The notes under the pieces were generated by a model. That model saw only the letters and a list, made by a program, of their open reading frames with translations, was not told the origin of the DNA and made no database searches. Source: a virus (Duplodnaviria > Caudoviricetes). Taken from it: a stretch of DNA of 25,208 nucleotides. Every line of letters starts with the position of its first letter. The stretch's first letter is position 1. The DNA lies in IMG/VR virus record IMGVR_UViG_3300017747_001595, positions 1 through 25,208 of that record. One strand, written 5' to 3'. Below, in pieces: positions 1 through 16,856 of the stretch. Made by a program: the position numbers and the translations under genes.

Positions 1-734
1 GCCGTTAAGTCACGTTTTGACCACCGAGTCATCACGATTATGATGGAACCACCTGGTTGTAGACGCTGACGAGGACCAGATGTATACCACTCGTACACTT
101 TGTCGTACACCTCTGGGTTACTTTCCGCTAATGTCGCCTCTTGTTCCGAATGAGGGTCGTCAATAATGAGGACGTCCGCGCCTTTACCTGTAACAGCGCC
201 ACCCACACCAATAGCAAAATAATCTCCGCCACGGTTAGTTGCCCAGCGTCCGGCCGCCTTCGAATCAGACTGAAGGCCGACTCCAGGAAATATCGATTTG
301 TAGACATCAGAATCCACCAAGTTACGTACTTTTCGGCCAAAGCCCACGGCCAGTTCTGCGGTATGGGAGGTCTGGATGACCTTTTTCTGTGGAAATTTAC
401 CCAAGAACCAAGCAGGTAGAAGATAACTCGCAAACTCAGATTTTGTATGACGAGGAGGCATATTAATAATAAGTCTCTTAATCTCACCCCTAGCCACCCT
501 TTCGAACGCATGTGCCATGTCCTTGTGGTGTCGACCCCCAATGAATGTGGGCCACACTTTATTCACGAAGTCCATGAAGTTGTCTTGCGCGTTTTCTTTT
601 GTTTTGAGATTCTCAAGCTCTGTGAGCTCTTCTAACAGCCGTGCCTTCTCTTCTTCACTTAGCAAGTGAATGACTTTATTAATGTCTTTCAAACTGACAT
701 TTAAGTCTTTAGCTATCGAATTAAGGATTGCCAT
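1..734 (-). CDS. terL: Terminase large subunit, N-terminal ATPase part (truncated by window edge)
   Basis: Manual translation from ATG at 734 is open to the edge: MAILNSIAKD...KRLIINMPPRHTKSE (Walker A-like)...GVGGAVTGKGADVLIIDDPH (Walker B)...IIIVMTRW. Not in the ORF track because there is no stop in the window. Confidence 0.95.
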   Translation of the reverse strand, partial: MAILNSIAKDLNVSLKDINKVIHLLSEEEKARLLEELTELENLKTKENAQDNFMDFVNKVWPTFIGGRHHKDMAHAFERVARGEIKRLIINMPPRHTKSEFASYLLPAWFLGKFPQKKVIQTSHTAELAVGFGRKVRNLVDSDVYKSIFPGVGLQSDSKAAGRWATNRGGDYFAIGVGGAVTGKGADVLIIDDPHSEQEATLAESNPEVYDKVYEWYTSGPRQRLQPGGSIIIVMTRWSKRDLT

Positions 735-1329
735 TAGTGTCGTCTATCGCCTTCGGTTTCTCCGATACCGCCACGCCCAGCACATCATCTAGAACTTCCG
801 CCGTTGGTGTGATGGGTTCCACGTCTATCACGTCTGTCTTTAGCAAACGTTTAATCTTCTCTTTAATCGCGGTTTCCAAGTCTTCACTGTTCTTATATTT
901 AACAGTCACTTCACTGCGCTCTGTGAACAGGGCTATATCCGAATGTTTACCTAACAATTCGAGTGCCTTAAGCTCAAACCTAGGGTCACCACAGTTAGCT
1001 AGTTCTAATAACTTATTAGTTAATGCAGCTCGTACATCTGATACATCTGCTGCCAACCGTGCGCTATATGTACGAAGAAACTCACGTGCAGCAAATGCCG
1101 CCCCTGGGGTGGTTAGCGCTTTAGGGTCTTGATTCTTAACTGCTTTATCAATGAGGTTAGCTGCCGCTTGGGCATCTTCTGTGCTCATTTCTGGGGGTCC
1201 GCCCAAGGCCTCAAGCAAGTCTGCTGTGTTAGCAGCAATCGCTAAGTCTTCGGCAAAAGAAGAGGTGTCCGGCTTATCGTCGGAATATGGGACAGGCTTG
1301 TCCTTATCAGGTTCTATTTGAATACTCAT
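721..1329 (-). CDS. Probable terminase small subunit
   Basis: 202-aa helical ORF directly upstream of terL, overlapping it by 14 nt. The call rests mainly on position. Confidence 0.55.
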   Translation of the reverse strand: MSIQIEPDKDKPVPYSDDKPDTSSFAEDLAIAANTADLLEALGGPPEMSTEDAQAAANLIDKAVKNQDPKALTTPGAAFAAREFLRTYSARLAADVSDVRAALTNKLLELANCGDPRFELKALELLGKHSDIALFTERSEVTVKYKNSEDLETAIKEKIKRLLKTDVIDVEPITPTAEVLDDVLGVAVSEKPKAIDDTNGNP

Positions 1330-1665
1330 GCAGGGCGAATCGGGTGCGCTCCAGTTGTTTGATGTGAGTATATACAGATTTTTAAAAAGTGCAAAACTTT
1401 TTGTGGGGTGGGGGTACTAATACTAGATTGTAAAAATGCGAAGTTTAACGTTTACAGGATATTTAGCGTCGCCGAGCCGACGTTCGTACTTTCCCCCCGT
1501 TTGCTCACTCTCACATAAGCAAAATTAGTTTATCAAAAATATACCCCCCGTGCATGGGACCCTAAATAAAAAGATAGGGGGTGGGTTCGCTTAACTGGGA
1601 AACTGGGAAATCTGTGGATATTCAAGTAGGGGTAGGGGGTTAAGTAGGCCGCGCTAAGCAAAAAT

Positions 1666-1701
1666 GGTAACTTTGGTAACCCTGGTAACTTCGGTAACTT
1701 T
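1666..1701. repeat. Tandem 4 x 9 bp repeat GGTAACYYY
   Basis: ggtaacttt ggtaaccct ggtaacttc ggtaacttt at 1666, 1675, 1684 and 1693. AACTGGGA also occurs twice at 1593-1608. Confidence 0.9.
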
Positions 1702-1843
1702 TTTAAAGTTGTGTATCTAATGTGCAAATTAGTGAGTAATAGGCAGTAGGAGTCCCATTCTACAAATGTGGGGGGCGGGGTATCAGCTTTGCAAATCATA
1801 TAACAATGTTATGGATAGGGGGTTAAATATTCTTTCCATCAAT

Positions 1844-1873
1844 TTGTATTTTGTAAAACAATCTGACTATAAT
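1844..1873 (+). promoter_or_regulatory. Putative sigma70 promoter P1
   Basis: TTGTAT-18 bp-TATAAT upstream of the first + strand gene. Confidence 0.55.
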
Positions 1874-2049
1874 GACAGCGAGCGCCACAGATTACAGCGC
1901 TTTATAAAATGTAATCGGCGCTGATTCTAAGACACTAGATATATGCGCTGACCGCTTTGACCTAGGGGGTGACAGCTCTAGCGAGTGCGAAGTTAGATAG
2001 CGATATCTTGTTCTTATTCTTTCTTAACCCTTTAGGAGTTTTATCAATC

Positions 2050-2580
2050 ATGGAAAATATCCATACAGTAGTAAGCCCAGTAGATTTAGAAGCCCAAATC
2101 ACAGAAGCCCGCCATGCGGTCACCGATTCATTACGTGGCAGTTTCGGCGCACAGAAGCGTTATGCTTCACTGTTGAATCAGAAGTTTGAATTCAATTGGT
2201 TTGATGTTAAGCACACCGACATCACTGATGAGGGTAAGGCAGTGCGTAAAGAGAAAGAAGCTTTCTTCGGTGAGCTCAAGGCTATCAACCACTCTAACCC
2301 TAGCAAGATTTGGAAAGACGTTAGAGAGTATGGTAGAGCCGAGCGCTTCCCTCAAGAGAAGAAGCTCGATGCTGAAGGTAATGAGATTACCGAAGTAGAA
2401 GAAGGTAAGAGCGGTGCGAATCATAACCGCTCACCAATGCTTCGCAACGTGGAAGAATTGACAGCCTTGTGGAAGTTTAACAAGCGCCAAGAATCTATCC
2501 CTGATAACCTACAGAAAGCCACTGTGAAAATCGGTGAAGCTTTGCAGGCTTTGGGTGTGAATCTGTCAATGATTCAGTAA
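2050..2580 (+). CDS. Hypothetical early protein, paralog A (176 aa)
   Basis: RBS AGGAG before ATG 2050, preferred to the track's GTG at 1969. Clearly homologous to 3290..3796. Confidence 0.85.
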   Translation: MENIHTVVSPVDLEAQITEARHAVTDSLRGSFGAQKRYASLLNQKFEFNWFDVKHTDITDEGKAVRKEKEAFFGELKAINHSNPSKIWKDVREYGRAERFPQEKKLDAEGNEITEVEEGKSGANHNRSPMLRNVEELTALWKFNKRQESIPDNLQKATVKIGEALQALGVNLSMIQ

Positions 2581-2584
2581 TCAC

Positions 2585-2607
2585 ATGGGGGGCTGACAAC
2601 CCCCCAT
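2585..2607 (+). terminator. GC hairpin after paralog A (weak terminator or processing/stability stem)
   Basis: ATGGGGGG-CTGACAA-CCCCCCAT followed by an imperfect U tract, tactttct. Confidence 0.5.
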
Positions 2608-2626
2608 TACTTTCTTAGGAGTAAGT

Positions 2627-2812
2627 ATGAATCAAGGTTTAGTTTATTGGGAAGATAACGAGCTCTGTTTTTATTTGCCTTACTTTGATTGTGACAGAAA
2701 AGAGCGCTGGCATATTAAAAGAGCCGAGTATCACTTAGAGCAGTTAGAGCGCTTGTTTGAAATAAATCAAGCTTGCTGTCCTACAGAATTACATAGGGAG
2801 TTTTTTATATGA
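2627..2812 (+). CDS. Hypothetical protein (61 aa)
   Basis: AGGAG RBS upstream; ATGA overlap with the next ORF. Confidence 0.7.
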   Translation: MNQGLVYWEDNELCFYLPYFDCDRKERWHIKRAEYHLEQLERLFEINQACCPTELHREFFI

Positions 2813-2949
2813 AATATCCAGTATCAATTTTTGATATACAAAAAGATTTAAAAGTTTGGGGCTTTTGGTTTGTTGTTTATCAGCATGGTTTTACCCCTCG
2901 CACACTATGGCTTATCTTTGTAGCTAAGCGCATGACACCCGCCTTCTAA
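2809..2949 (+). CDS. Small hypothetical protein (46 aa, MKYPVSIFDIQKDLKVWGFWF...)
   Basis: GGGAG RBS, ATGA coupling, ends just before a terminator. Below the track's length cutoff. Confidence 0.65.
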   Translation: MKYPVSIFDIQKDLKVWGFWFVVYQHGFTPRTLWLIFVAKRMTPAF

Positions 2950-2951
2950 TC

Positions 2952-2980
2952 AAGCCCGCCATGTGCGGGCTTTTTTTATT
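2952..2980 (+). terminator. Rho-independent terminator
   Basis: AAGCCCGC-CATGT-GCGGGCTT followed by a T run. Confidence 0.9.
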
Positions 2981-3175
2981 TCCAAAATTATGGGCGCCGA
3001 TTAACAATGTTATGACGTGCCCAAAGTGATAGTTCTCAGGGACGCGAAAGGTTGCACATTCTTTTGTCGCATCACGCAAGGGGAACATGATAGTTCTAAG
3101 GGACGCAAGACGCTAAAACATGAACCTAACAATGTTATACAGTTTTGAAATTTTTTGAATTTCTTTCCAAAAAAC

Positions 3176-3204
3176 TTGATTAAGCCACTATTTTGTTATA
3201 CAAT
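3176..3204 (+). promoter_or_regulatory. Putative sigma70 promoter P2
   Basis: TTGATT-17 bp-TACAAT with an A-rich upstream tract. Confidence 0.7.
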
Positions 3205-3289
3205 TAAGTATAGTAAAAAATTGCAGTAAAGGCTTAGTTGGGTCGCCTGTTTAAAGCATCTAACAATGTTATATGGAGTTTTAATCAAA

Positions 3290-3796
3290 ATGAATACATT
3301 AAATAACGAAGTGTTGAATGACGAAATCGCTATTGCTATGGATAGCGTAGTAGATAGCGTTAAAGGTTCTTATGGTTCACAGGTTCGCCTAGCTAGCTTG
3401 CTCAATCAGAAATACGAGTTCAATTGGTTTGATGTGAAACATACCGATACCTCAGACGAGGGCAAGCAAGTTCGCAAGGACAAGGAAACCTTGTTCACGA
3501 AACTCAAGGCGATTGACCATTCTAACCCTAGCAAGATATGGGCAGATGTTCGTAAGTATGCTCGCCTTGAGAGATACCCTGAGGTTAAAGAAGAGGGCGA
3601 AGTTCAAGAGGGCGAACAAGGCGAAAGTGGTGCGAACCACAATCGTAGCCCAATGTTGCGAACAGTTGAGGAATTGACTGCTTTGTATAAATTCCTAAAA
3701 CGCCAAGAAAACCTAGACCCAAAACTCAATGGTGCATTGTTGCATATTGGCAAGGCTCTTGAGGAATGTGGCGTCAAGTTGAATATGATTCAATAA
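3290..3796 (+). CDS. Hypothetical early protein, paralog B (168 aa)
   Basis: GGAG RBS before ATG 3290. Shares ASLLNQK.EFNWFDVKHTD, HSNPSKIW and SGANHNRSPMLR.VEELTAL with paralog A. Confidence 0.85.
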   Translation: MNTLNNEVLNDEIAIAMDSVVDSVKGSYGSQVRLASLLNQKYEFNWFDVKHTDTSDEGKQVRKDKETLFTKLKAIDHSNPSKIWADVRKYARLERYPEVKEEGEVQEGEQGESGANHNRSPMLRTVEELTALYKFLKRQENLDPKLNGALLHIGKALEECGVKLNMIQ

Positions 3797-3815
3797 GACC
3801 TACTACGCTAGGGAT

Positions 3816-3844
3816 AAGGGAGACCTGAGGGTCTCCCTTTTTTT
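3816..3844 (+). terminator. Rho-independent terminator
   Basis: AAGGGAGACC-TGAG-GGTCTCCCTT followed by a T run. Confidence 0.9.
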
Positions 3845-4365
3845 GTCCTAATTTTTTATGACCTAACATTGTTATACAATGTTCAAATTGTAAGAGGGGG
3901 AAGTGATAGTTCTAGGGGACGCAAGACGCAAAAACTAATGTTAGAAATGTTTGTTGGGAATGCTTTGCAATTTTCTAACATTACGCCTAATAAAATCAAG
4001 GACTTACACCTAATGTTAGAAATGCAAAAACGAATTCTAACATTATAAAAACCTTTGTAATCATGAAGTTACAAGCGATTGTTATACAAAGTGAGAAAAA
4101 CCCGAAAAATTGAGAGTGCAAGTTCTCAAAAGACCCCCTACACGCAGTGCAATCCCCCAAGCAAGAAAACTCTCAGGGGGGTATATAATTTTTCTAACAT
4201 TATAACATTATAACAATACACCCTACACAATTGATTTTATTGACTTTCTATTGTTAGAATTACTTTTTACACTTTCTAACATTATAACAATACATTTCTC
4301 ACTCTGTATAACATTGTTAGGATTATTGCCGTATACCCAAGTTCTGAAACCTCTCCGAAGAAAAC

Positions 4366-4394
4366 TTGAACTGACTACTTTTATGTGTTACAAT
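4366..4394 (+). promoter_or_regulatory. Putative sigma70 promoter P3 (extended -10)
   Basis: TTGAAC-17 bp-TACAAT, with TGn immediately before the -10. Confidence 0.75.
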
Positions 4395-4467
4395 TAGGTA
4401 TGTGAAAAAATAAAAATTTATGTGGGCTTTTTGTTTTCTTAATGTAGTTTCTCAGGAGTGTATAACA

Positions 4468-4557
4468 ATGTTAGATAAAGTCTTAGTAGTCCTTGCTTTC
4501 ATAGTCGCACCCATTTATTTCGTGGGTCATATTTTCTTTTACTTATTTAGGGGGTAA
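4468..4557 (+). CDS. Small membrane peptide (29 aa, MLDKVLVVLAFIVAPIYFVGHIFFYLFRG)
   Basis: AGGAG RBS; one hydrophobic segment; first ORF after P3. Confidence 0.6.
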   Translation: MLDKVLVVLAFIVAPIYFVGHIFFYLFRG

Positions 4558-4559
4558 TC

Positions 4560-4871
4560 ATGGGCAGAGTAAAACATCAGATGATGGAAGAATCACAAGC
4601 ACAAAATCGTTTCAACTTTCTTGACGAGCAAGAGTGCAATCGTATTGCGTATAACAATGTTAGGTCTGAGGAATCAACCACTCAACGCATTGCTAAAGCA
4701 TGGGTAGCACACGCCACAATCAACAAGCTAAAACATAACACAGAAAAGCGTAGACAAGCCCAATACTATTTCGTATCAGGTGCAGTATCCATGCTTGACC
4801 GAGTGCCTATGTTGATTAGTTTGTGCCTTGCATCAGGTCGTGATTTAGAGTCAGTTATTCAGAGAGGCTAA
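4560..4871 (+). CDS. Hypothetical protein (103 aa)
   Basis: ORF in a tightly packed operon with a GGGGT RBS-like sequence. Confidence 0.75.
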   Translation: MGRVKHQMMEESQAQNRFNFLDEQECNRIAYNNVRSEESTTQRIAKAWVAHATINKLKHNTEKRRQAQYYFVSGAVSMLDRVPMLISLCLASGRDLESVIQRG

Positions 4872-4873
4872 CA

Positions 4874-5065
4874 ATGTTAGACAAAATAAAAATAGTAGCT
4901 GAGCAGAATGGCATTTACACACACGCCATTCGTTATGTCAGCGATGAGGACTGCCCTGTGAGTTTTCAAGTAGTTGCAACAGACGAGCTTGATGCTTTCA
5001 TGCAGTGGACTGAATATATGTTAGGAGAGGTGAACCATGCTTTATCCCTTGCAGACAGAGGTTGA
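4874..5065 (+). CDS. Hypothetical protein (63 aa)
   Basis: GAGG RBS; starts 2 nt after the previous stop. Confidence 0.7.
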   Translation: MLDKIKIVAEQNGIYTHAIRYVSDEDCPVSFQVVATDELDAFMQWTEYMLGEVNHALSLADRG

Positions 5066-5261
5066 TGACCACGAGTGTGGTTGTGGTGAGCTTATTGAAG
5101 AAGGGCGGTGGGACATTGGCTACCGAGTATGTCTTGGGTGCGGTGATTCCATAGCCAAGCAGAAGAAGTGGACTGTTGCTATTCCATATAGCAAGGGTGC
5201 ATATCAGCTTATCCACGACCCGAAAGATTTATTTTTTACTAACCCGAAAAGGACAACATGA
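5037..5261 (+). CDS. Small C4 zinc-finger protein (TraR/DksA-like finger spacing)
   Basis: ECGCGELIEEGR...YRVCLGCG; GAGGTG RBS. Confidence 0.6.
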   Translation: MLYPLQTEVDDHECGCGELIEEGRWDIGYRVCLGCGDSIAKQKKWTVAIPYSKGAYQLIHDPKDLFFTNPKRTT

Positions 5262-5434
5262 CAGAGTATTACCGAGGGGAACGAGTGGCGGACTTACTGA
5301 AACGAATTGAGGAGTTGAAAGCTATCCTTGATGAGAACGCACACTTAGAACCTGACCCTCTTAGGATTGTTTCAGCATACGCAGACTTGGCAATTGCCAA
5401 GGCTAAATTTACGGCATTGAAAGGTGAGAAATGA
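5258..5434 (+). CDS. Hypothetical protein (58 aa, MTEYYRGERVADLLKRIEEL...)
   Basis: ATGA overlaps at both ends; AGGA RBS. Below the track cutoff. Confidence 0.7.
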   Translation: MTEYYRGERVADLLKRIEELKAILDENAHLEPDPLRIVSAYADLAIAKAKFTALKGEK

Positions 5435-5562
5435 ACATAGATGTATTGATTACTTTGGTTGGTGGCTTTATCTTGGGCTACCTATTGGGAGTTAGGGTCA
5501 CGAGGTATCGTGTCATAACATTGTTAGAACGCATGAAGAAGGAGTATTTCAATGGGTTATAG
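5431..5562 (+). CDS. Small membrane protein (43 aa, MNIDVLITLVGGFILGYLLG...)
   Basis: ATGA coupling; N-terminal hydrophobic helix with GxxxG. Confidence 0.65.
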   Translation: MNIDVLITLVGGFILGYLLGVRVTRYRVITLLERMKKEYFNGL

Positions 5563-6055
5563 AAGTCAGGTTGCTTGTTGTATCAGCGTAGATGTAGAAC
5601 GCAGAGAGATACCGAACCGCACAGATGTGAACGGCGAACCGAAGTATGAGTTTGTTTACGATAAGGACAAGTTCAAGCAGATGATTGGGTTCATCAAGCT
5701 CTCTAGGTTTTGGGAGTTGTGGCAAAACAGTTCAGACCAAGACGCAATTGGTTGGCGTAATGGCAGGTTCATTATGTATGGTGCTGATTGGAAATGGTAT
5801 CCCGACTATGAAGATGTCAAAGAGTTTCACAAGATGTTCAATCAGTTGGGTGAGATTGAAGGAATCTCAGGATACTTTTTGCGAGTGGGCGAAGAGATGC
5901 GTGATGTGGAAGAAGAACAGTTTGGCGATGACCCATGCTATGACTACTTCCATGCGTTTTCCGCTATGGACTTTCAAGGTGAAGATTATTTAGGAAAGAG
6001 AGAAACAGATGATGAAGAACCGCAAGCACAAGATGCGATTGCAACGCAGTCTTAA
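5552..6055 (+). CDS. Hypothetical acidic protein (167 aa)
   Basis: AAGGAG RBS; long ORF in the operon. Confidence 0.8.
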   Translation: MGYRSQVACCISVDVERREIPNRTDVNGEPKYEFVYDKDKFKQMIGFIKLSRFWELWQNSSDQDAIGWRNGRFIMYGADWKWYPDYEDVKEFHKMFNQLGEIEGISGYFLRVGEEMRDVEEEQFGDDPCYDYFHAFSAMDFQGEDYLGKRETDDEEPQAQDAIATQS

Positions 6056-6170
6056 TGTTAGAAAAGTTAGACAAGCACAACGATTTGCACAATCTAACAT
6101 TGTTAGGCGTAGCGTAGTAGTGGCAACAGATTAACACTAGCTCATGTAGCTCATTTAAAGAGAGGAAATT

Positions 6171-7124
6171 ATGTTCGGATATAGTAGGAACTCAGGTATC
6201 TCATGGTTCAGAGATTATGGTGATGCACTGCACAAGTATGAAAGCACGACAGATATTCGTGGCAGAACCGAAGAACCAAAGCGACCACTAGGGCATCGCA
6301 AGAGTGTGGATATGTATTCCATCGTGAAGTTGGATAACGGCGACATTCAATGTGTGCTTTACCAAACGCCTGTGATTACTTTCCATACGGATAACACAGT
6401 AAGCATAAAAGATGGCAGTTGGGCTAGTCAGACTACGGCTAACTTCATACCTGAGGTGATGGGTGGTGATGTGTATGCACGAGTGTTCAACGCCAAGATA
6501 TGCTTGACTGTTTGTGGTGATGATTACTTTCTACCTAGCGAGGGACTAAAGCTAAGCAAGACCGAGCAAGGCAATTGGCAAGTGGACAATCCACCTAACA
6601 ATGTTATCCACCACATAAATCGTAAGGCATCGCAGTTAGCACTAGCCAAGTATGAGGATTTCTTTAACTATCTGGAACGCATGATGAAGTTGCGGTTTGA
6701 TGGTGAGAGAGCAGTCTTTTGTGAGGAAGAGTATGTGCATACCTTCGGTGAGCTGAAAGATGGGACTAACTACATGGGTAGAAGTGATTGCGTGTTGAAC
6801 ACTGCCTATCAGGGAACGCACTTGGGTAAGTTCAAAGAATATATTACTGATACTTCAGAGGCTCAGCATATGAGCTACTACAAGGCTATGCTTACCCTAG
6901 TAAACACAGTGGCTTGGATTGATTGGCATTCGCAACAACGCCGAATGAAACGAGTGCATTGGGATAAAGCATTCAACGAGTTGAAGAATTTTATATGGGG
7001 TTTGCATCGTGACGAGGTGTTCAAGGAAGTGCCTGTCGCAAATGGCGTGGTCAAGCGAGATGCCTATGGGCGGTTCTTCAGCGGTGGTTGGAACACATAC
7101 CATGCGAATAACATTGTTAGGTAG
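6171..7124 (+). CDS. Hypothetical protein (317 aa)
   Basis: GAGGA RBS; long ORF with no motif I recognise. Confidence 0.85.
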   Translation: MFGYSRNSGISWFRDYGDALHKYESTTDIRGRTEEPKRPLGHRKSVDMYSIVKLDNGDIQCVLYQTPVITFHTDNTVSIKDGSWASQTTANFIPEVMGGDVYARVFNAKICLTVCGDDYFLPSEGLKLSKTEQGNWQVDNPPNNVIHHINRKASQLALAKYEDFFNYLERMMKLRFDGERAVFCEEEYVHTFGELKDGTNYMGRSDCVLNTAYQGTHLGKFKEYITDTSEAQHMSYYKAMLTLVNTVAWIDWHSQQRRMKRVHWDKAFNELKNFIWGLHRDEVFKEVPVANGVVKRDAYGRFFSGGWNTYHANNIVR

Positions 7125-7148
7125 TTATGAAACCACTCAGAAGAATAC

Positions 7149-7177
7149 TTGACTTTGTCAGTATTGTGTGTTACAAT
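7149..7177 (+). promoter_or_regulatory. Putative sigma70 promoter P4 (extended -10), with palindrome TTGACTTTGTCA over the -35
   Basis: TTGACT-17 bp-TACAAT with TGn. Confidence 0.8.
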
Positions 7178-7306
7178 ATAGTATATATTGATGATGGGAG
7201 TTTTTCATTACTTAAGTTATGAATCACATAACATTGTTATATGTAGTGCAGTAGTAGTAAGTATCTTAACCATACAGCAACAAGTTCTTAATATAAGGAA
7301 AAGCAA

Positions 7307-8374
7307 ATGAGTGAATTAAATTTTGGTAAAACAATTACATTGAAACAAGCAAGTCAAATGATTCTTGCCACACCACAGAATCGCTACTTACTACAAGGCG
7401 AGCCTGGGATTGGCAAATCCTCTCTGCTTAAGACGCTATCCGCAAGTCTGCCTGACCATGAGGTGTCATATATTGATGTGCCTAACATGGACTTGGGCGA
7501 TATTGCCATGCCTGTTATCAACCATGAAACCAAGACTACTGCCTACTACCCTAACACTAGATTCAAAGTGCATACGGGCAAACCTGTCATAACAATGTTA
7601 GATGAGTTCACGAAGGGTGCTGAGCCTGTGAAGAATATGTTGCACCCATTACTTGAGGTAGCGAACCCAAGACTAGGTGATGTATCAGTTCACCCTGAGT
7701 CAATTATCTTTCTGACAGGCAACCTAGGCACAGATGGAGTAGGCGATACCCTGAAAGCTCATAGCCGTAATCGTGTTATTCCACTAACCATAAGCAAGCC
7801 TGATGCAGACCAATGGATTGAGTGGGCTATCAATAACGACATAGCACCTGAGGTTATTGCGTGGGTCAAGCAGTTCCCCCATGCACTAGCAAGCTATACA
7901 GACCCAAGCCAAGCAGACAATCCGTATATCTACAACCCAAAGAAGATGCAGACCGCATTCGTATCGCCTCGTTCACTTGAGAGAGTATCTAACATTGTTA
8001 AGGTGCGTTCACAAATTGATACCGATACTTTGATATGTGCAATGACAGGAGCAGTGGGGGAGTCCGCATCACGAGATATGCAAGCATACATTGACTATGC
8101 AGACCAGCTACCTGTTTGGGAATCTGTAATCAAAGACCCTAAGAATGCGAAAGTTCCTGAGAGTGCAGGTGCTAGTGCGATTGTGGTATTCGGTGCGATT
8201 ACTAAGATTGACAAGACAACCATTACTCCATTCATGACTTACTTGGAAAGGTTTGAACCTGAGTGGCAAGCGTGCTTTGCAATCAATGTGGCTAAGTCAC
8301 CGACTAAGCAAGCGGTGGCATTCAGTTCCGCTAAGTTCGCTGATTGGGTTCAGAAGAATGAAGATTTACTTTAA
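7307..8374 (+). CDS. MoxR-like AAA+ ATPase
   Basis: Walker A GEPGIGKS, Walker B ITMLDE, sensor-1 LTGN, sensor-2-like SPRS. Adjacent to a vWA gene. Confidence 0.85.
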   Translation: MSELNFGKTITLKQASQMILATPQNRYLLQGEPGIGKSSLLKTLSASLPDHEVSYIDVPNMDLGDIAMPVINHETKTTAYYPNTRFKVHTGKPVITMLDEFTKGAEPVKNMLHPLLEVANPRLGDVSVHPESIIFLTGNLGTDGVGDTLKAHSRNRVIPLTISKPDADQWIEWAINNDIAPEVIAWVKQFPHALASYTDPSQADNPYIYNPKKMQTAFVSPRSLERVSNIVKVRSQIDTDTLICAMTGAVGESASRDMQAYIDYADQLPVWESVIKDPKNAKVPESAGASAIVVFGAITKIDKTTITPFMTYLERFEPEWQACFAINVAKSPTKQAVAFSSAKFADWVQKNEDLL

Positions 8375-8393
8375 TAGTTAAAGGGATATAACA

Positions 8394-9608
8394 ATGTTAG
8401 ATACACCTAGCGTAGTAGTGAAAGACAAAGAAGAACGCCGCCTGAGCAAAGTTAAGATTGCCATTATGCGTAATCCTAAGTTTGCCTTGTGGTCAGGCTT
8501 GATGACTGTGGGTAAGACGAGAGTTGATGACAATGTTCCGACCGCTTGCACTAATGGGCGTGACGAGATTTATGGGCGTGAGTTTATTAAATCGCTTGAC
8601 GACAAAGAGCTTGCCTTTGTTGTGCTACATGAAACATTGCACAAAGCGTATCGCCACTTGTTCACATGGAAGAAGTTGCATGATGAGAATCATCAGATTG
8701 CGAACATGGCTTGCGACTATGTTATTAACTTGCAGTTGCTAGACATGGATAAAGAGCAGTCAGTAATCGCCATGCCTACTCGTGCAGGTAAGGCAATAGG
8801 TCTAGTTGATGAACGCTTCCGCGGGTTCAACACTAAGCAAGTGTTTGATATTCTCAAGGAAGAAGAACCCGATGGTGGCTATGGTGGGGGTGATGGGTTT
8901 GACGAACACGATTGGGAAGGTGCGAAAGAACTCAACGAAGAAGATAAGAAAGCTCTTGAGAAAGAAGTTGACCAAGCCCTACGCCAAGGTGTTATTAACC
9001 ATAACAAGATAGCAGGTAAGGGTGCAGGTGGTATGAATCGTGAGTTAGGTGATTTGCTTGAACCCAAGGTAGATTGGCGTGAGATGTTGCGTGAGTTTGT
9101 GAAGGCTACTTGTAGTGCGAAAGATGCAAGCTCATGGCGTAGGGTTAATCGCAGATACCTGTCAGGTGATACCTATATGCCTAGCTTAATAGGTGAAAGA
9201 GTTGGGCATCTGGTGATTGGTATTGATACGAGTGGCTCTATCGGTAATGCGGAACTCAACGAGTTTCTAACCGAGGTCAAGGGTATTGCGAATGAGGTTC
9301 ACCCTGAGAAAGTGGACTTGATGTATTGGGATACTGAAGTAGCAGGACACGAGGAGTATGGATACCACGAGGTAGATAACATTGTTAGCTCTACTAAACC
9401 TAGAGGTGGTGGTGGAACAGACCCTACTTGCATGATTGCATACATGAAGGAGAAGAACATCAAGCCTGAGGCAATCATCATGTTGACCGATGGTTGTATT
9501 GGTCATTGGGGTGACGAGTGGGAATCTCCAATCTTGTGGACTATCTGTGGACAGTGGGGGAAGAATACCTATGCACCTATTGGCAAGACTATTCACATTG
9601 GTGACTAA
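8394..9608 (+). CDS. DUF2201-type protein: HEXXH putative metallopeptidase plus C-terminal vWA domain
   Basis: TACTNG...HETLH...ACDYVIN in the N-terminal part; MIDAS IDTSGS, GGGGTD and LTDG in the C-terminal part. Confidence 0.85.
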   Translation: MLDTPSVVVKDKEERRLSKVKIAIMRNPKFALWSGLMTVGKTRVDDNVPTACTNGRDEIYGREFIKSLDDKELAFVVLHETLHKAYRHLFTWKKLHDENHQIANMACDYVINLQLLDMDKEQSVIAMPTRAGKAIGLVDERFRGFNTKQVFDILKEEEPDGGYGGGDGFDEHDWEGAKELNEEDKKALEKEVDQALRQGVINHNKIAGKGAGGMNRELGDLLEPKVDWREMLREFVKATCSAKDASSWRRVNRRYLSGDTYMPSLIGERVGHLVIGIDTSGSIGNAELNEFLTEVKGIANEVHPEKVDLMYWDTEVAGHEEYGYHEVDNIVSSTKPRGGGGTDPTCMIAYMKEKNIKPEAIIMLTDGCIGHWGDEWESPILWTICGQWGKNTYAPIGKTIHIGD

Positions 9609-9618
9609 GGAGAAATAT

Positions 9619-9870
9619 ATGAAAGCAAAGATACAGATTGGCTACAAGACCTATGTGGTTGACCATGATAAGGCTATTCAGATACTAACAATGTTAGATG
9701 AGGCTGAGTGCTACGACAGTCAATACCACAAAGATGTGGGTGATGGTAAGGGTTCATACACTACGCATTATGTGTATGCACAAGAAGATATTAAGACGCA
9801 TAGCTTGGAGTTTATACCTGACAAGCTATATGCAATGTGGAAATTAGCAGGTAAACCAACGAAGGAGTAA
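9619..9870 (+). CDS. Hypothetical protein (83 aa)
   Basis: AAGGAG RBS before ATG 9619, preferred to the track start at 9490. Confidence 0.75.
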   Translation: MKAKIQIGYKTYVVDHDKAIQILTMLDEAECYDSQYHKDVGDGKGSYTTHYVYAQEDIKTHSLEFIPDKLYAMWKLAGKPTKE

Positions 9871-9874
9871 CGAT

Positions 9875-10051
9875 ATGGCTGAACTAACAATGAAACCATG
9901 CAATTTGACAAGGGAAGAATGGGATTTTTTATTGGTGGTATTCCAAGACTATGTAGATAACTTAGATTCTTCTGAATCCACAGTTGAGATGCTTAAGGAA
10001 ATACACCAAAAGCTATTTTTTATGGACTATTTAATCCAACAAGGGGAGTAA
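9875..10051 (+). CDS. Hypothetical protein (58 aa, MAELTMKPCNLTREEWDFLL...)
   Basis: AAGGAG RBS; fills the gap exactly. Confidence 0.7.
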   Translation: MAELTMKPCNLTREEWDFLLVVFQDYVDNLDSSESTVEMLKEIHQKLFFMDYLIQQGE

Positions 10052-10053
10052 TC

Positions 10054-10917
10054 ATGAGTATATCAAGTAGTGCAGTATTGGCAGAGTTGAACATTAGTGT
10101 TTGGACTGCTAACAAGTTAGACCGAGGTGCGACTGATGCGGTGCTTAGCAATGCGAGTGCTAGTAAAGATTCGGCACAGGTTCGCAAGAACTTAATGGCA
10201 GGAACTGACAAGCGTAAAAAGATAGCTGACTACGCTGCTAGGGCTAGGCTCTACCACAACCAGACTACTTTGCCTTGGTCAGATAAGGGTAGCAGACTAC
10301 TACCAACGAGTTTGTTCATGGAGTATAAGCAGAACATGAACACAATCAAAGGCAACATGAACGCCATGATTGAGGATTTCTATACGAACTACGAGAACTT
10401 AGTTGAGCAAGCTAAGTTTCACCTAGGCGATTTGTTCAACGCTGAAGATTATCCTAGCCTTGACGAGTTGCAAGGTAAGTTTGGTTTCCGCTTGGTGTTT
10501 AGTCCATTGCCTGAGTCAAATGATTTCCGCTTAGACATACCGAAGAATGACTTAGATGAAATGGCTAAGGACTATGAGCTAGCTTATAAAGATAGATTGG
10601 CTGATGCTATGCGTGAGCCTTGGGATAAGTTGCACAAGTGCTTAGGTCATATCTCTGAGAAGTTAACGGCAGAGGTAGGTGTTGATGGTCAGGAAATTCC
10701 TAAGCGGTATCACGATACCCTTATCACCAATGCCACAGAGTTGTGCGGTTTATTGACGCACTTGAATATCACCAAAGACCCTAAGTTGGAAGAGGCACGC
10801 CGTTCACTTGAGCTAACAATGTTAGGTGTTGACATTGATGATATTAAAGAACACGCAAGTGTGCGTAATGATGTTAAGTCTAAGGTTGATGAAATCTTAG
10901 GTAAGTTTGATTGGTAA
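10054..10917 (+). CDS. Conserved helical phage protein, possibly DUF3150-like
   Basis: LNISVWTANKLD...TLPWSDKGSRLLP pattern and position next to the AAA+/vWA pair. Family call is from memory and unverified. Confidence 0.5.
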   Translation: MSISSSAVLAELNISVWTANKLDRGATDAVLSNASASKDSAQVRKNLMAGTDKRKKIADYAARARLYHNQTTLPWSDKGSRLLPTSLFMEYKQNMNTIKGNMNAMIEDFYTNYENLVEQAKFHLGDLFNAEDYPSLDELQGKFGFRLVFSPLPESNDFRLDIPKNDLDEMAKDYELAYKDRLADAMREPWDKLHKCLGHISEKLTAEVGVDGQEIPKRYHDTLITNATELCGLLTHLNITKDPKLEEARRSLELTMLGVDIDDIKEHASVRNDVKSKVDEILGKFDW

Positions 10918-10927
10918 GGAGATGAGT

Positions 10928-11794
10928 ATGTTGCAATTGGAAAATGTAGAGTTCCCAAAAGAAACCGATAAGAATGGTATAGAAGTTGTAGCCACTATGG
11001 ATACTTACTTAGCACCATTAGTTGAAAAGCTGGCGTTAGCACACCCTGAGTGGCAGTTCAAGTCGCATCACTGCCGTAAGTTCTACGGCACTCATACATC
11101 AGGCGCAGACTTTGCTATGGTGATTGAACGAGTTAAGGTCATGGATAAATACGAAGAGCTGGGCTTGCTCGGCACTGACTACACAAGTAAGGGTAAGAGG
11201 TTTTATGTAAGCAATCACCGAACCGAAAAGATGCGTGAACGAGGTTCGGGTATGAAAACTATTCACCTTGATAAAGCGTGTAAGCACGTGGATAAATACT
11301 TTGGTCGCATGAATCATGGCGAGAAGATTGAGCAAGCGTCACTAGAAACTAAAGATGCGACATATCGTGTGATGCAAGATTCTTGGTATCCGATGCGAAA
11401 TGCTTGGCAAGCGGTAGAAGAAGTAGCTAAGAACTTTGTGGTTGATAACTTAGATGCGTTTAAAAGTTATATGCAGACCAATAGTAATACTAATGCTACG
11501 CAGATAGAAGCAGTAGATAAGTTCCCATCGCTATTGGCAGAGCATACAGGTATGCAAGCTATACATAGTAGTGTAGAAAAAAATCAACACATACTTGTTT
11601 TATTAGATGGAATGAATTATATTGTCAAACACAACAATCAGGTGGAAGTTAAAACTAGTGAGGAGTTGCCTGATTTTGTGCGAAGAGGAGTGGGTATGCT
11701 TAAGCTAGTAGAAGTAAAGCACGCTATCACCAACATTGGTGTTAGGGTAGATGAAACTACATTTGCTTTGATACCACCTAACAATGTTAGTTAA
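10928..11794 (+). CDS. Hypothetical protein (about 288 aa)
   Basis: TAAGGAG RBS with proper spacing to ATG 10928. Confidence 0.8.
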   Translation: MLQLENVEFPKETDKNGIEVVATMDTYLAPLVEKLALAHPEWQFKSHHCRKFYGTHTSGADFAMVIERVKVMDKYEELGLLGTDYTSKGKRFYVSNHRTEKMRERGSGMKTIHLDKACKHVDKYFGRMNHGEKIEQASLETKDATYRVMQDSWYPMRNAWQAVEEVAKNFVVDNLDAFKSYMQTNSNTNATQIEAVDKFPSLLAEHTGMQAIHSSVEKNQHILVLLDGMNYIVKHNNQVEVKTSEELPDFVRRGVGMLKLVEVKHAITNIGVRVDETTFALIPPNNVS

Positions 11795-11806
11795 TAAGGA
11801 GTTAAC

Positions 11807-12010
11807 ATGAAACAATTTTTTAAAGTAGTCAAGCAAGCCCTTGAAAAGGCTAAGCCTAAACCTGCTATGGCGTTAGACAAAGATTCAAAGTTTGTCTATC
11901 AGAGTGGTGCTGATGTGCAGAAAACATGGCGTAAGTATGGTTGGATACCACCAACAGAATATCGTGAGGACTACGAGTTTGCAAAGAATAGGGGGGTTTC
12001 AAATGACTGA
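11807..12010 (+). CDS. Hypothetical protein (67 aa)
   Basis: AAGGAG RBS; contains DVQKTWRKYGWIPP. Confidence 0.75.
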   Translation: MKQFFKVVKQALEKAKPKPAMALDKDSKFVYQSGADVQKTWRKYGWIPPTEYREDYEFAKNRGVSND

Positions 12011-12191
12011 TACCCCTAATAAGAAAGGCAGAGGATTAGGTAAAAAGCCTTCAATGCAGTATGTGGCGGTTAGGGTTAGTAGAGAAGTCTATGACTTTTA
12101 TAACTCGTTTCCGTCACGCAGTAAAGCCATGCGAATGGCGTTAGAAAAATTTGTTAACGAAGAAAAGGAAAAGCAAAATGAAACAAACTAA
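12003..12191 (+). CDS. Putative ribbon-helix-helix DNA-binding protein (62 aa)
   Basis: Basic arm KKGRGLGKK, alternating strand QYVAVRVS, helix REVYDFYNSF, then SRSKAMRMALEKFV. Confidence 0.6.
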   Translation: MTDTPNKKGRGLGKKPSMQYVAVRVSREVYDFYNSFPSRSKAMRMALEKFVNEEKEKQNETN

Positions 12192-12675
12192 AACACAAAA
12201 AGTAATGAAGTATATAGCTAAGCACCCTAGTGCTAAGGCTAGTGAAGTAGCTAAAGCCACAGGCGTAGCCGTATCTCTTGTATACGCTATTATCAGCAGG
12301 GCTAAGAAGGGCGGTAAGTTAAACCCTCTACCGCTTACAGGCATCACACCTAGCCAAGCTAAAGACTTAGCTTTCCAAATAAGCCAAGGTCGTAGCAAGA
12401 TGCGTGGTCGCCCACCTCGTATGAGAACTATTGCTGAGTTTGTTAGTGATACTCCAATAGCCACACGCATGGCAACGGCAGCCGATAACGTGAACCACCC
12501 TTCGCACTACAAGACAGGTGGTATTGAAACGATTGATTTCATTGAGGCGAAAGGCTTGAGCTATCACTTGGGTAACGTAGTTAAATACATTACTCGTGCT
12601 GAACACAAAGGCAATCGCAAGGAAGACTTACTCAAGGCTCAGTGGTATTTGAACCGAGCTATTGAGAAACTGTAA
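12178..12675 (+). CDS. HTH-DUF3310 fusion protein
   Basis: N-terminal KASEVAKATGVAVSLVYAI (HTH). C-terminal DNVNHPSHY..GGIETIDFI...GNVVKYITR..HKG..EDLLKAQWYL (DUF3310 signature). Confidence 0.8.
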   Translation: MKQTKTQKVMKYIAKHPSAKASEVAKATGVAVSLVYAIISRAKKGGKLNPLPLTGITPSQAKDLAFQISQGRSKMRGRPPRMRTIAEFVSDTPIATRMATAADNVNHPSHYKTGGIETIDFIEAKGLSYHLGNVVKYITRAEHKGNRKEDLLKAQWYLNRAIEKL

Positions 12676-12887
12676 TACAGAGAAGGGGGATTGATACACT
12701 GACTGCTGAGTTGCCTTGTAGGTGTAAAGGTAATCGGTGTCACTAGTTGACCCCTTCCCCTTAACAGGGTTTATTTCTCAGCTAGTGAACTCATAGTCCG
12801 AGGGTGGCGGATAACCTACATATCCACCCACTTCCCATACACATAACAATGTTATGTCGTGTCTAAAAAATAAATCATAAAAACCCC

Positions 12888-12915
12888 TTGACAAAGTCCA
12901 AGACCCTTGTATTAT
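12888..12915 (+). promoter_or_regulatory. Putative promoter P5 with operator-like TTGACAAAGTCCA
   Basis: TTGACA-16 bp-TATTAT; same architecture as 21227-21254. Confidence 0.7.
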
Positions 12916-12921
12916 TAGGGC

Positions 12922-13257
12922 ATGGCACTCACACCCGAAAAGAAAGTTAAGAACAAATGCGTTACGCTAATCAAAGCGTTTAACGTGTATTATTTCTTTC
13001 CTTCAATGAACGGCTTTGGTCGTAGCGGTGTGCCTGACATTATCTGTTGTGCTAACGGAGTATTCCTAGGCGTTGAATGCAAGGCTGGCGATAACAAGCC
13101 AACCGAGTTGCAATTGCTTGAGATGAAAAAAATCCGAGACGCTGGTGGTAAGACGCTTGTGGTTAATGAGGAAAACATAAGCGAACTTGAAGAGTTACTA
13201 AAGGAGCTAACGAATGAGAACCGAGGACATGAACAAGGGCGTGCAGATATTACTTGA
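12922..13257 (+). CDS. VRR-NUC / Holliday-junction-resolvase-like nuclease
   Basis: TPEKKVK...GVPDIICC...GVECKA...PTELQ, a PD-(D/E)XK motif set. Confidence 0.85.
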   Translation: MALTPEKKVKNKCVTLIKAFNVYYFFPSMNGFGRSGVPDIICCANGVFLGVECKAGDNKPTELQLLEMKKIRDAGGKTLVVNEENISELEELLKELTNENRGHEQGRADIT

Positions 13258-13627
13258 ACGAATCAAGAGCAACCCCGAAGAATTTACACCTGACATAGTA
13301 GGTAGGTATCCTGAGAAGTGGCGTGCTGTCTTGCAACAGGTAGAGGGTCGTGCCAACGATAAAGCCTGTAGATATTTAGACTTTCTTTCTGACGCAGAGA
13401 TTGCTGAAGTATGGCGTGCCATACAAGACGTAAGGGGAGACCAATTCACCAAGCAAGTTATGGACACGCTACTGCGTGATGGGGAACTATCACTCACTTC
13501 TGACCTTGGGCTTGGCGAAACGTCAAATTTAGAAAAGTTGCTTGAGGCAAAAGCAAAAGCTGAAGTAAATAAAGCAAAAACCATGCAAAGAATGGCACTA
13601 CTAAATCGTATCGCAGGTGCTAAGTGA
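13214..13627 (+). CDS. Hypothetical protein (137 aa)
   Basis: AAGGAG RBS; abuts the polymerase start. Confidence 0.75.
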   Translation: MRTEDMNKGVQILLERIKSNPEEFTPDIVGRYPEKWRAVLQQVEGRANDKACRYLDFLSDAEIAEVWRAIQDVRGDQFTKQVMDTLLRDGELSLTSDLGLGETSNLEKLLEAKAKAEVNKAKTMQRMALLNRIAGAK

Positions 13628-15444
13628 AAGTAATTGGCTTAGACTTTGAGACCTACTACTCAAAGACCTTCTCGCTGACCAAGCTGACAACGGAAGAATA
13701 TATCCGTTCACCTGAGTTTGAGACGATTGGCGTATGCGTGCAAGTGCAAGGCGAACACCCTGTGTTCTTTAGCGGTACTAAGAAAGACACAAAAGCTTTC
13801 CTTGATTCATACGAGCTTGATAAGCACATGGTCGTTGCCCACAACGCTATGTTTGATATGGCTATCTTGAATTGGCAGTTTGATATTCGCCCTAGGGCTA
13901 TTGTCGATACGCTGTCTATGGCTCGTGCAATACATGGAACAGAAGTTGGCGGTAGCTTGGCTAAGTTGGCTGACCACTATGGCATCGGTCAAAAGGGTGA
14001 CGAAGTATTTAAGATGGAAGGCAAGCGTCGTCTAGATATATCACCCGCTGATATGGATAGGTATGGTGACTACTGTATCAATGACGTGGTGCTGACCTTA
14101 GCCCTATTTGAAAAGATGGTTGCGAACTTCCCGATGGCGGAGTTGAAGTTGATTGACCTGACCATTCGTATGTTCAGCGAACCTACGCTTACATTAGATG
14201 CTCAAGTGCTACGTGACCACCTTGATGAGATTCGGTTCAAGAAGCAAACGCTATTGAAGACAGGGTTGAACAAAGAAGACCTCATGAGTAACGACAAGTT
14301 CGCAGGGTTGCTTGAAGCGTATGGTGTTAAGCCACCACGCAAGGTTAGCCCAACAACAGGTAAAGAAACATGGGCATTCGCTAAGACCGATGAAGGGTTC
14401 AAAGCACTCCTTGAGCATGAGAACGAAGATGTGCAGTTACTTGCAAGTGCAAGACTTGGTATCAAATCTACGATTGAAGAGACACGCACCGAACGCTTTA
14501 TTGACATAGCTGACCGTGGCTTATTACCCATACCCCTACGCTACTATGCAGCTCATACAGGGCGTTGGGGCGGTGACGACAAGGTAAACCTACAAAACCT
14601 ACCTCGTGGCTCAAAGCTTAAGTATGCAATCAAAGCTCCGAGTGGATACGTGGTTATCGATAGCGATTCGTCTCAGATTGAGGCTCGCACATTGGCGTGG
14701 TTGGCTGAACAGAACGACTTGGTTGATGCGTTTGAGAAAGGCGAAGATGTATACAAAATCATGGCGTCTTCTATCTATAACAAGGACATTACACAAATCA
14801 CAAAGGATGAACGTTTTGTCGGTAAAACGACAATCTTGGGGAGTGGCTACGGCATGGGGGGAAAGAAATTCCAAGCGCAACTCAAGAACTTCAATGTGGA
14901 TATTGCAGAGGAAGAGGCTAGCCGTATCGTCTCGGTTTACAGGGAGACCTACGAGTGGATACCTGTGTTATGGCAGAAAGCGCATAAGTCATTAGATGCA
15001 ATCTTGAATGACCAAGCGATGGACTTGGGTCGTGGCGGTGTGCTGAAGGTCGAGGGTAAGAAAGGCATACGCCTACCGAATGGGCTGTACATCAAGTATC
15101 CAAACTTGCGCCAGGTAGAAAATGAGCAAGGCAAACTAGAGTATGTGTATGACACCAAGAAGGGCAAAGCTACCATACCTAACCGAATCTACGGCGGTAA
15201 GGTTGTGGAGAACGTCTGCCAAGCACTAGCCCGAATCATCATCGGCTATCAGATGCTCATCATCGCTAAGAAGTACAAGGTCGTAATGACTGTGCATGAT
15301 GCTATCGCAGTGGTTGTACCTGAGGCTGAGAAAGAAACGGCTCAGGAGTTTGTTGAGATGTGCATGAGGTTGCGCCCTGATTGGGCGTTGGAGTTACCAC
15401 TTAATTGTGAATCAGGAGTAGGAGCTAGCTATGGAGATTGTTAA
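13624..15444 (+). CDS. polA: Family A DNA polymerase with 3'-5' exonuclease domain
   Basis: Exo I LDFET, Exo II AHNAMFD, Exo III YCIND; HTGRW..NLQNLP; motif A DSSQIEAR; motif B RFVGKTTILGSGYG; motif C TVHDA. Confidence 0.95.
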   Translation: MKVIGLDFETYYSKTFSLTKLTTEEYIRSPEFETIGVCVQVQGEHPVFFSGTKKDTKAFLDSYELDKHMVVAHNAMFDMAILNWQFDIRPRAIVDTLSMARAIHGTEVGGSLAKLADHYGIGQKGDEVFKMEGKRRLDISPADMDRYGDYCINDVVLTLALFEKMVANFPMAELKLIDLTIRMFSEPTLTLDAQVLRDHLDEIRFKKQTLLKTGLNKEDLMSNDKFAGLLEAYGVKPPRKVSPTTGKETWAFAKTDEGFKALLEHENEDVQLLASARLGIKSTIEETRTERFIDIADRGLLPIPLRYYAAHTGRWGGDDKVNLQNLPRGSKLKYAIKAPSGYVVIDSDSSQIEARTLAWLAEQNDLVDAFEKGEDVYKIMASSIYNKDITQITKDERFVGKTTILGSGYGMGGKKFQAQLKNFNVDIAEEEASRIVSVYRETYEWIPVLWQKAHKSLDAILNDQAMDLGRGGVLKVEGKKGIRLPNGLYIKYPNLRQVENEQGKLEYVYDTKKGKATIPNRIYGGKVVENVCQALARIIIGYQMLIIAKKYKVVMTVHDAIAVVVPEAEKETAQEFVEMCMRLRPDWALELPLNCESGVGASYGDC

Positions 15445-16692: not shown

Positions 16693-16856
16693 ACAACGAG
16701 AACGAAAAGACCGAGAGCAAAACGATTGACAGAGAACAAGTTGTTCTTTGGGCATACGAAGCAGGCTTCCCTAGCAATTATGTGCGGGGTGAAGTAGCAC
16801 GCTTTGAAACACTAGTTAACTTAGTTAAGAAATACATAGAAAGGGATTACAAATGA
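16689..16856 (+). CDS. Hypothetical protein (55 aa)
   Basis: GTGA and ATGA overlaps with its neighbours; contains REQVVLWAYEAGF. Confidence 0.5.
   Translation: MNNENEKTESKTIDREQVVLWAYEAGFPSNYVRGEVARFETLVNLVKKYIERDYK

Follow-up and report, generated by a model that had tools for sequence, protein, structure and literature searches.

A dispersed palindrome array in the early region of freshwater phages and a candidate phage-encoded reader

Why does a phage carry many copies of one short perfect palindrome in a single part of its genome, and which protein reads them? The question is raised by a 25,208-nucleotide stretch of a tailed phage (Caudoviricetes; IMG/VR record IMGVR_UViG_3300017747_001595, positions 1 to 25,208), referred to here as the window, in which the 11-base palindrome TAACAWTGTTA recurs across the early genes. 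The first early gene, which encodes a small protein, is designated gene 1 and is present twice in the window; it very probably encodes the reader of these sites. The covariation of gene-1 subfamily with site spacing and of one residue with the site flank, the synonymous decay of sites within genes and the offsets of sites from promoters are newly described here; no account of this array was found in the literature searched, which consisted mostly of non-subscription papers without supplements.

The palindrome array and its confinement to the early block

TAACAWTGTTA was found in 22 exact copies, all between 1801 and 12854, with none in the rest of the window, as an earlier note made from the sequence alone had reported. 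In 100 shuffles of the window the mean was 0.04 copies and the largest number 2, in agreement with the very low chance expectation (about 0.03) given in that note. Allowing any centre and one mismatch added a single copy, at 24299, where 1.6 were expected, and the motif therefore has no halo of weak sites. Twelve of the palindromes are inside called open reading frames, in two frames (N-N/I-V and I/L-T-M/L-L), and three further copies overlap an ATG (3261, 4869 and 8389). The earlier note had described both frames correctly, including the copy encoding part of ITMLDE at 7590, and its count of ten intragenic copies was close. It had also described the flanks as mixed and often non-pairing, and this was confirmed: the outer base, with both sides pooled (n=44), is C in 23 cases, A in 19 and T in 2, and the two outer bases are complementary in only eight of the 22 palindromes, for which reason a reading as RNA hairpins was rejected. 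Neighbouring sites are 120–650 bp apart on the left and some 1 kb apart towards the right, consistent with the fall in density towards the right that had been noted, but the first gap (1,201 bp) is the largest and the gradient is thus not monotonic.

Three copies of a 41-nt repeat (3018–3119 and 3895–3935) adjoin the sites at 3002, 3127 and 3864, and weaker TAACATTATAAC-type repeats are found at 4035–4290.

The array is present in more than 100 genome pieces of relatives. Three or more copies sharing a spacing class were found in 76 of 80 loci anchored on the AAA+ ATPase gene, the exceptions being L040, L047, L050 and L079; the first three of these are nearly without an array. The commonest form in relatives is CTAACAWTGTTAG, and others have a 2-bp centre, no centre (CTAACATGTTAG in L184) or A or G as the outer base. 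Locus L276 carries a half-site variant, CTGACAAATGTCAG, and L046 and L049 have few palindromes yet 7–9 copies of an asymmetric word, AAAAATAGGCA. The confinement to the early region claimed for the window was borne out by whole-genome counts: in 13 genomes one run of 7.6–12.2 kb, starting 0.3–2.2 kb from the small terminase gene, holds 219 of the 227 sites, and in nine complete genomes 156 of 164 sites are inside one 8–12 kb block.

The copies within genes are held at the DNA level and decay by synonymous change in lineages with 2-bp sites. Four intragenic positions are common to relatives (Table 1). In phages with a 1-bp spacer the motif was found in 203 of the 206 gene copies with compatible amino acids, compared with only eight of 51 codon-compatible gene copies in phages with a 2-bp spacer; codon use alone predicts it in 1–4% of compatible positions. 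This difference rules out a cause at the protein level, and the constraint on DNA that the earlier note proposed thus stands after a check on synonymous substitution. Some 2-bp phages keep the peptides ITMLD, SNIVK and LTMLG but encode them by different codons. There is amino-acid drift as well, with incompatible residues in 101 of 152 cases in 2-bp phages versus 46 of 252 in 1-bp phages. In some mixed phages the sites between genes are 2-bp and those within genes 1-bp, which suggests that the reader changed before the sites.

Gene 1 as the candidate reader

A column scan over 20 gene families picked out gene 1, the products of which split into two subfamilies, A and B. Distinct proteins accompanied by at least three sites were counted (116 of 122 proteins). 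The 65 in subfamily A comprised 60 with 1-bp sites, two mixed, two with 2-bp sites and one with no centre, while the 51 in subfamily B comprised 36 with 2-bp sites, 10 mixed and five with 1-bp sites. A search with subfamily B alone gave mostly 2-bp phages. On a tree of the ATPase, subfamily and spacing were concordant in 72 of 79 loci. Twelve switches of subfamily were seen on this tree, and in several sister pairs the spacing switches with it. Concordance on a tree of the small terminase (terS) was 103 of 111. A further 79 metagenome loci gave 39 new proteins. Of these, 38 are accompanied by two or more sites, and the spacing was 2 bp in 31 of the 38, mixed in five and 1 bp in two.

Models of both subfamilies have four helices, a linker and a helical hairpin (predicted local distance difference test, pLDDT, 79 and 83; predicted template modelling score, pTM, 0.54). 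The predicted gene-1 homodimer scored 0.64 and the best control 0.00; of the 30 solved pairs 20 attained the mark used, as did one of 23 single chains. The homodimer runs had at least 78% contact agreement and pLDDT of at least 77, and helix 4 was mostly outside the predicted interface, with only residues 83 and 87 within it. The models support a dimeric gene-1 protein, and together with the covariation they make likely the dimeric reader of double-stranded DNA that the earlier note had suggested.

The residue three before the invariant tryptophan of helix 4 tracks the outer base of the site. Where it is Asp (37 proteins) the outer base is C at a frequency of 0.89. Asn (five proteins) and Thr (three) go with A at 0.66 and 0.61, Lys (one) and Arg (one, in subfamily A) with G at 0.77 and 1.0, and Tyr or His (five) with C at about 0.87, as does Ser (59, subfamily A) at 0.84. 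The pairings of Asp with C, Asn with A, and Lys or Arg with G are usual protein–base preferences. This column is the best in the gene-1 protein for the outer base (0.79 versus 0.51 for the next), and the residue changes six times on a tree built without it. In the new metagenome loci, Asp was again associated with C (0.87, 32 proteins), and Asn, Thr and Gly (six proteins) with a mix of C and A. The link between Asp and C is therefore firm, while the other residues relax or shift the preference.

Several observations weigh against gene 1 as the reader. In a strict pair test on supported branches of the ATPase tree, 4.8 pairs changed the same way, 0.0 the opposite way and 3.2 showed no difference (p 0.06), and the strict spacing test on the terS tree gave p 0.125. 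The exceptions to the association are the five subfamily B proteins with 1-bp sites and, in subfamily A, the two with 2-bp sites and the one with no centre; two more B proteins with 1-bp spacing were among the new metagenome loci. The pair test for the flank had only two pairs on well-supported branches (p 0.5), and out of sample Asn was associated with C at 0.47 and A at 0.38, a relaxation rather than a clean flip. Ser proteins go mostly with C (0.84), yet the flanks in this window are mixed, so its Ser proteins fit the residue–flank scheme only partly and the scheme lacks a second flank determinant. One column of the VWA protein ties with the gene-1 column (30 rows); the tied column fails to distinguish A flanks from G flanks, and the next-best rival is a column at the old motif position.

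The other proteins considered gave less. The earlier note had listed five candidate binders, starting at 2050, 3290, 12003, 12178 and 22569. The first two, which are the gene-1 paralogs, co-vary with the motif. No column tracking the spacing was found in the ribbon-helix-helix (RHH) protein at 12003 or the helix-turn-helix (HTH)-DUF3310 protein at 12178, both with too few rows for the flank test, and the RHH proteins of a 1-bp phage and a 2-bp phage share 95.5% identity. For 22569 there were too few 2-bp lineages for the spacing test. The length of the loop before helix 4 was tried as a rule for the spacer and is broken by L123, L238, L343 and L344.

Gene 1 had no sequence match in Pfam, PHROG or PDB, and its fold had no Foldseek match at E 0.001 in PDB or BFVD. 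A KaiA-like fold was rejected, as the best VIA scores (Z 7.3 for KaiA, root-mean-square deviation 3.8, 80 aligned; and Z 6.1) were within the background for helical bundles. The ESM Atlas places gene 1 with unnamed viral clusters, DUF3102 at 0.86 being a lead only, and the gene-1 profile matches 678 database proteins, none of them named among the 120 matches listed. As judged from these sequence comparisons, gene 1 appears to belong to no described family.

Table 1. Features of the window
Feature	Position	Strand	Remarks
22-site array TAACAWTGTTA	1801..12854	none	Exact motif count
Site starts 1–11	1801, 3002, 3127, 3261, 3864, 4309, 4463, 4652, 4869, 5516, 6095
Site starts 12–22	6596, 7109, 7229, 7590, 7990, 8389, 9377, 9686, 10814, 11779, 12844
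Gene 1 paralog a, putative reader	2050..2580	+	Subfamily A; four helices, acidic linker, helical hairpin; family covariation
Gene 1 paralog b, putative reader	3290..3796	+	Predicted homodimer; helix 4 (residues 80–95) likely recognition helix
Site in AAA+ ATPase (ITMLD)	7590..7600	none	Same position in 51/81 loci
Site in ATPase (SNIV)	7990..8000	none	Same position in 59/81 loci
Site in DUF2201 peptidase-VWA gene	9377..9387	none	Same position in 54/77 loci
Site in DUF3150-like gene (LTML)	10814..10824	none	Same position in 53/67 loci
Two sites bracketing sigma-70-like promoter TTGATT-17-TACAAT (3176–3204)	3127..3271	+	Centres about −78 and +56; consensus match only
Two sites bracketing sigma-70-like promoter (4366–4394)	4309..4473	+	About −86 and +68; site 4463 overlaps likely start codon
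Two sites bracketing ATPase promoter-like element (7149–7177)	7109..7239	+	About −70 and +50
Last site and replication-operon promoter-like element TTGACA-16-TATTAT (12888–12915)	12844..12915	+	No site downstream in window
Zone lacking GTAC and GGCC, with few ACGT and TCGA; probable first-entering leader	1651..13774	none	Word counts
Putative small terminase	721..1329	−	Diverges from array, marks its left border

Promoters, DNA entry and the role of the array

Promoter-like elements were identified as consensus matches, and the counts include near-identical relatives. A site is centred at +20 to +90 for 70% of 305 elements, with a peak at +40 to +55 (random 11%), and at −40 to −110 for 31% of 320 elements (random 12%). 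Two sites bracket 51 of the 305, and three bracketed elements are in the window. Helical phasing of the bracketing pairs was rejected, as the distances range from 65 to 162 bp (commonest 120, 119 and 134) with no clear period by eye. The last site was also rejected as an activator of the replication promoter, its distance varying from 66 to 2,884 bp in 63 regions. The promoter-like element of the replication operon ends six bases before the ATG (12888–12922), with the same layout in many relatives, which suggests a leaderless mRNA.

This placement relative to promoters is the main reason why silencing of the early block, one of the possible roles offered in the earlier note, is favoured over the other roles weighed below. 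Under the proposed mechanism, the early block would enter the cell first, as a leader, and be transcribed by the host polymerase from sigma-70 promoters, with gene 1 made first. Gene-1 dimers would read the TAACA half-sites with helix 4, and the geometry of the dimer would set the spacer. Bound dimers near +50, at junctions between genes and at intervals of 0.4–1.2 kb within them would stall elongation or, alternatively, promoters bracketed by two sites would be looped out. As gene-1 protein accumulated, negative feedback would close the block and time the switch from early to replication genes. Gene 1 could also silence the leader of a second phage of the same specificity, and such silencing might account for the repeated replacement of reader and sites. 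We consider the chances of this mechanism as a whole, by roadblock or by loop, to be evenly balanced. Against it, classical occlusion is not the mode, as sites overlap only 10 of 320 elements; a loose threshold gives no more promoter-like matches than expected by chance (27 versus 28.5); and in about 30 of 63 relatives the first replication gene contains an additional site, which would be needless for pure early shut-off.

The early block is also purged of certain restriction words. GTAC is found 0 times in the block and 51 times outside it (p 1.6e-13), and synonymous shuffles give 20. The counts inside and outside the block are 7 and 58 for ACGT, 0 and 14 for GGCC, and 1 and 19 for TCGA. No clear depletion was seen for the other 11 palindromic tetramers present. 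In nine block genes, synonymous shuffles predict 11–21 of each depleted word. With words picked from the middle half of each block, eight of 13 genomes showed a strong contrast between block and rest, while five (GC 0.48–0.57) showed little. The left edge of the purge is sharp and at the first site in seven of the 13, with 8–19 words in the kilobase before it and 0–5 in the kilobase after, and towards the right the purge ends gradually. The block in this window has 13 words in its first kilobase, versus 16 per kb outside. Restriction sites matter mainly in the first-injected region in T5-like phages (PMC10644984) and in the early-injected region in Autographiviridae (PMC12455610). The purge makes it likely that the early block is the first-entering DNA, as the earlier note had supposed.

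Across the whole window there is no GATC, and CCGG is found twice. The longest interval between sites (1850–3000) still has ACGT, GCGC and TCGA words in the first kilobase of the block, and the paralog at 2050, which lies there, may be a recent gain.

With gene 1 still the reader, the dimers might instead compact or anchor the arriving leader, acting as handles that pull in or release the remaining genome. The common left edge of the array and the word-free zone in seven of 13 genomes, the largest inter-site gap in the window of only 1.2 kb and the coupling of first-step gene shut-off with second-step transfer in T5 (PMC10644984) are consistent with this. However, handles would not need to be placed at +40 to +55 from promoters, the purge has a gradual right edge with the last site 66 to 2,884 bp before the replication operon, and the array occurs without the purge in five of 13 genomes, so we regard an entry role as possible but doubtful. 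Dimers every 0.1–1.2 kb could also shield the leader from exonucleases or from a phage-made nuclease that degrades host DNA. Although the sites cover exactly the purged DNA, and the way in which T5-like phages keep their own first-step DNA from being degraded is described as unclear (PMC10644984), protection is improbable: the purge implies a leader unshielded from restriction enzymes, 22 short footprints cover less than 3% of 11 kb, and the placement relative to promoters is left unexplained. No nuclease family was found within the block, the 'HNH' label of phrog_1314 falling on the DUF2201 peptidase-VWA protein.

Exclusion could be the main role, with gene 1 of a resident phage silencing the leader of a later arrival and self-regulation secondary. 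The 12 subfamily changes on the ATPase tree fit this, as does the retention in some B-carrying loci of a few 1-bp sites beside 2-bp ones, expected if reader swaps precede, and stoperator repressors diversify under superinfection immunity (PMC9283540). Loss of sites would benefit an escaping phage, yet a full new array is rebuilt, and the sites must therefore serve their own genome; moreover, the 63 proteins scanned from two complete relatives include no integrase or ParA, and exclusion as the main role seems quite improbable. A host protein, such as a MazE/AbrB-type or MatP-type factor, could also read the sites. The palindrome resembles matS, differing at four of 13 positions from its consensus, GTGACRNYGTCAC. 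MatP has an RHH fold. The gene-1 models are helical without a ribbon strand, and MatP was absent among the fold matches listed. A plasmid antitoxin, MtvA, binds the identical 11-mer (PMC11826091). Nevertheless, a host reader is very unlikely, as the spacing and outer base change with gene 1 between close phages, and arrays are 1-bp or 2-bp in L056 and L053 despite ATPases that are 97% identical.

The phage, its relatives and known systems

The window is part of a freshwater (lake) phage of about 63 kb, which is likely lytic. Complete relatives have genomes of 60–67 kb, and the best-matching sequencing runs are freshwater metagenomes. The early block contains gene 1 twice, small open reading frames and genes for the AAA+ ATPase and the DUF2201 peptidase-VWA, DUF3150-like, RHH-like and HTH-DUF3310 proteins. 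The replication operon encodes a nuclease, DNA polymerase A, an exonuclease and a helicase, with a DUF927-type primase in relatives. A lytic life is likely because no integrase or ParA was found among the 63 scanned proteins (48 of G001 and 15 of G042) and neither the ATPase nor gene 1 had a match, as host or prophage gene, in the bacterial genomes searched. The gene at 721–1329 is likely the small terminase gene, as it precedes the gene for the large terminase in relatives. The capsid protein of G001 is 70% identical to that of MinM2 and 63% to that of HTVC023P. Genes for a glycosyltransferase-like protein and an FkbM methyltransferase are in the replication operon (16853–18342). Between the putative small terminase and the first site (1390–1790) are G-rich runs and four GGTAAC copies, with a 9-bp period at 1667–1700, which may be a packaging or genome-end signal. 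OQ594354, OL906435 and PP438419, three records labelled with different cyanobacterial hosts, have the same length (65,014) and identical match scores, and their host labels may be unreliable.

GalR operators flank the gal promoters near −60 and +53, and phiC31 has many palindromes, its conserved inverted repeats, that one phage protein reads. The array resembles the GalR system in having palindromic sites on both sides of promoters, but here bracketing is limited to 51 of 305 elements and the distances vary. In sequence searches the readers of both systems were unrelated to gene 1.

MinM2 (OQ594354, L208) is a cultured relative with the ATPase, VWA and DUF3150 genes. It has 18–21 copies of its own palindrome, GGTTCAN3TGAACC (2196–38560), two of them flanking the first early gene, but the sequence is different and the copies are spread over 36 of the 40 kb examined. 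MinM2 has two paralogous helical early proteins and offers a culturable test case for a similar system; its first gene was rejected as a gene-1 homologue (hhalign probability <1%). No repeated palindrome was found in HTVC023P (30 of 61 kb examined) or DSL-LC04 (45 of 62 kb).

The array recurs throughout a large group of uncultured phages, and a candidate for its reader can now be named. The natural variants in spacing and outer base make binding and specificity testable with one small protein and oligonucleotides, without a host, and orthogonal spacer variants could serve as repressors. If the entry role were true, control of staged DNA entry would be testable in a simple system.

The MtvA antitoxin of the Pseudomonas plasmid pPAD8 has the same 11-mer, TAACATTGTTA, as a tested binding site (PMC11826091). 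MtvA is a MazE-like protein with one promoter site (PMC11826091), whereas there are 22 dispersed sites here. Antitoxins of the MazE/AbrB type have a swapped hairpin and lie beside a toxin, and Pfam and PHROG scans of the window proteins found no such family. The first-step-transfer DNA of T5 and BF23 (PMC10644984) and the early DNA of Autographiviridae (PMC12455610) are alike in being a leader of about 10 kb in which restriction sites are costly, while tolerated elsewhere. The available parts of these papers describe no dispersed operator array over the leader, in contrast to the array found here. Other marks of a T5-type region are a long terminal repeat, injection in two steps with a stop signal, and A1 and A2; no homologues of A1/A2 were detected by PHROG or Pfam among 44 window proteins.

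The stoperators of cluster A mycobacteriophages (L5, TipsytheTRex; PMC9283540) are similar in that a short site is present in more than 20 copies, near and away from promoters, and is read by a phage-encoded protein (here a candidate), with reader and site diversifying between phages. However, the cluster A site is an asymmetric, orientation-dependent 13-mer and not, as here, a perfect palindrome, and its reader, which halts elongation when bound, is monomeric with HTH and Stoperator domains, whereas gene 1 is a predicted dimer of no known family. The cluster A sites are genome-wide in short intergenic spaces, unlike those here, which are in the first 8–12 kb and half within genes, and cluster A phages are temperate, whereas no integrase was found in the two relatives scanned (PMC9283540 for the cluster A properties). 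If leader silencing is true, the array would be a stoperator-like timer in a likely lytic phage.

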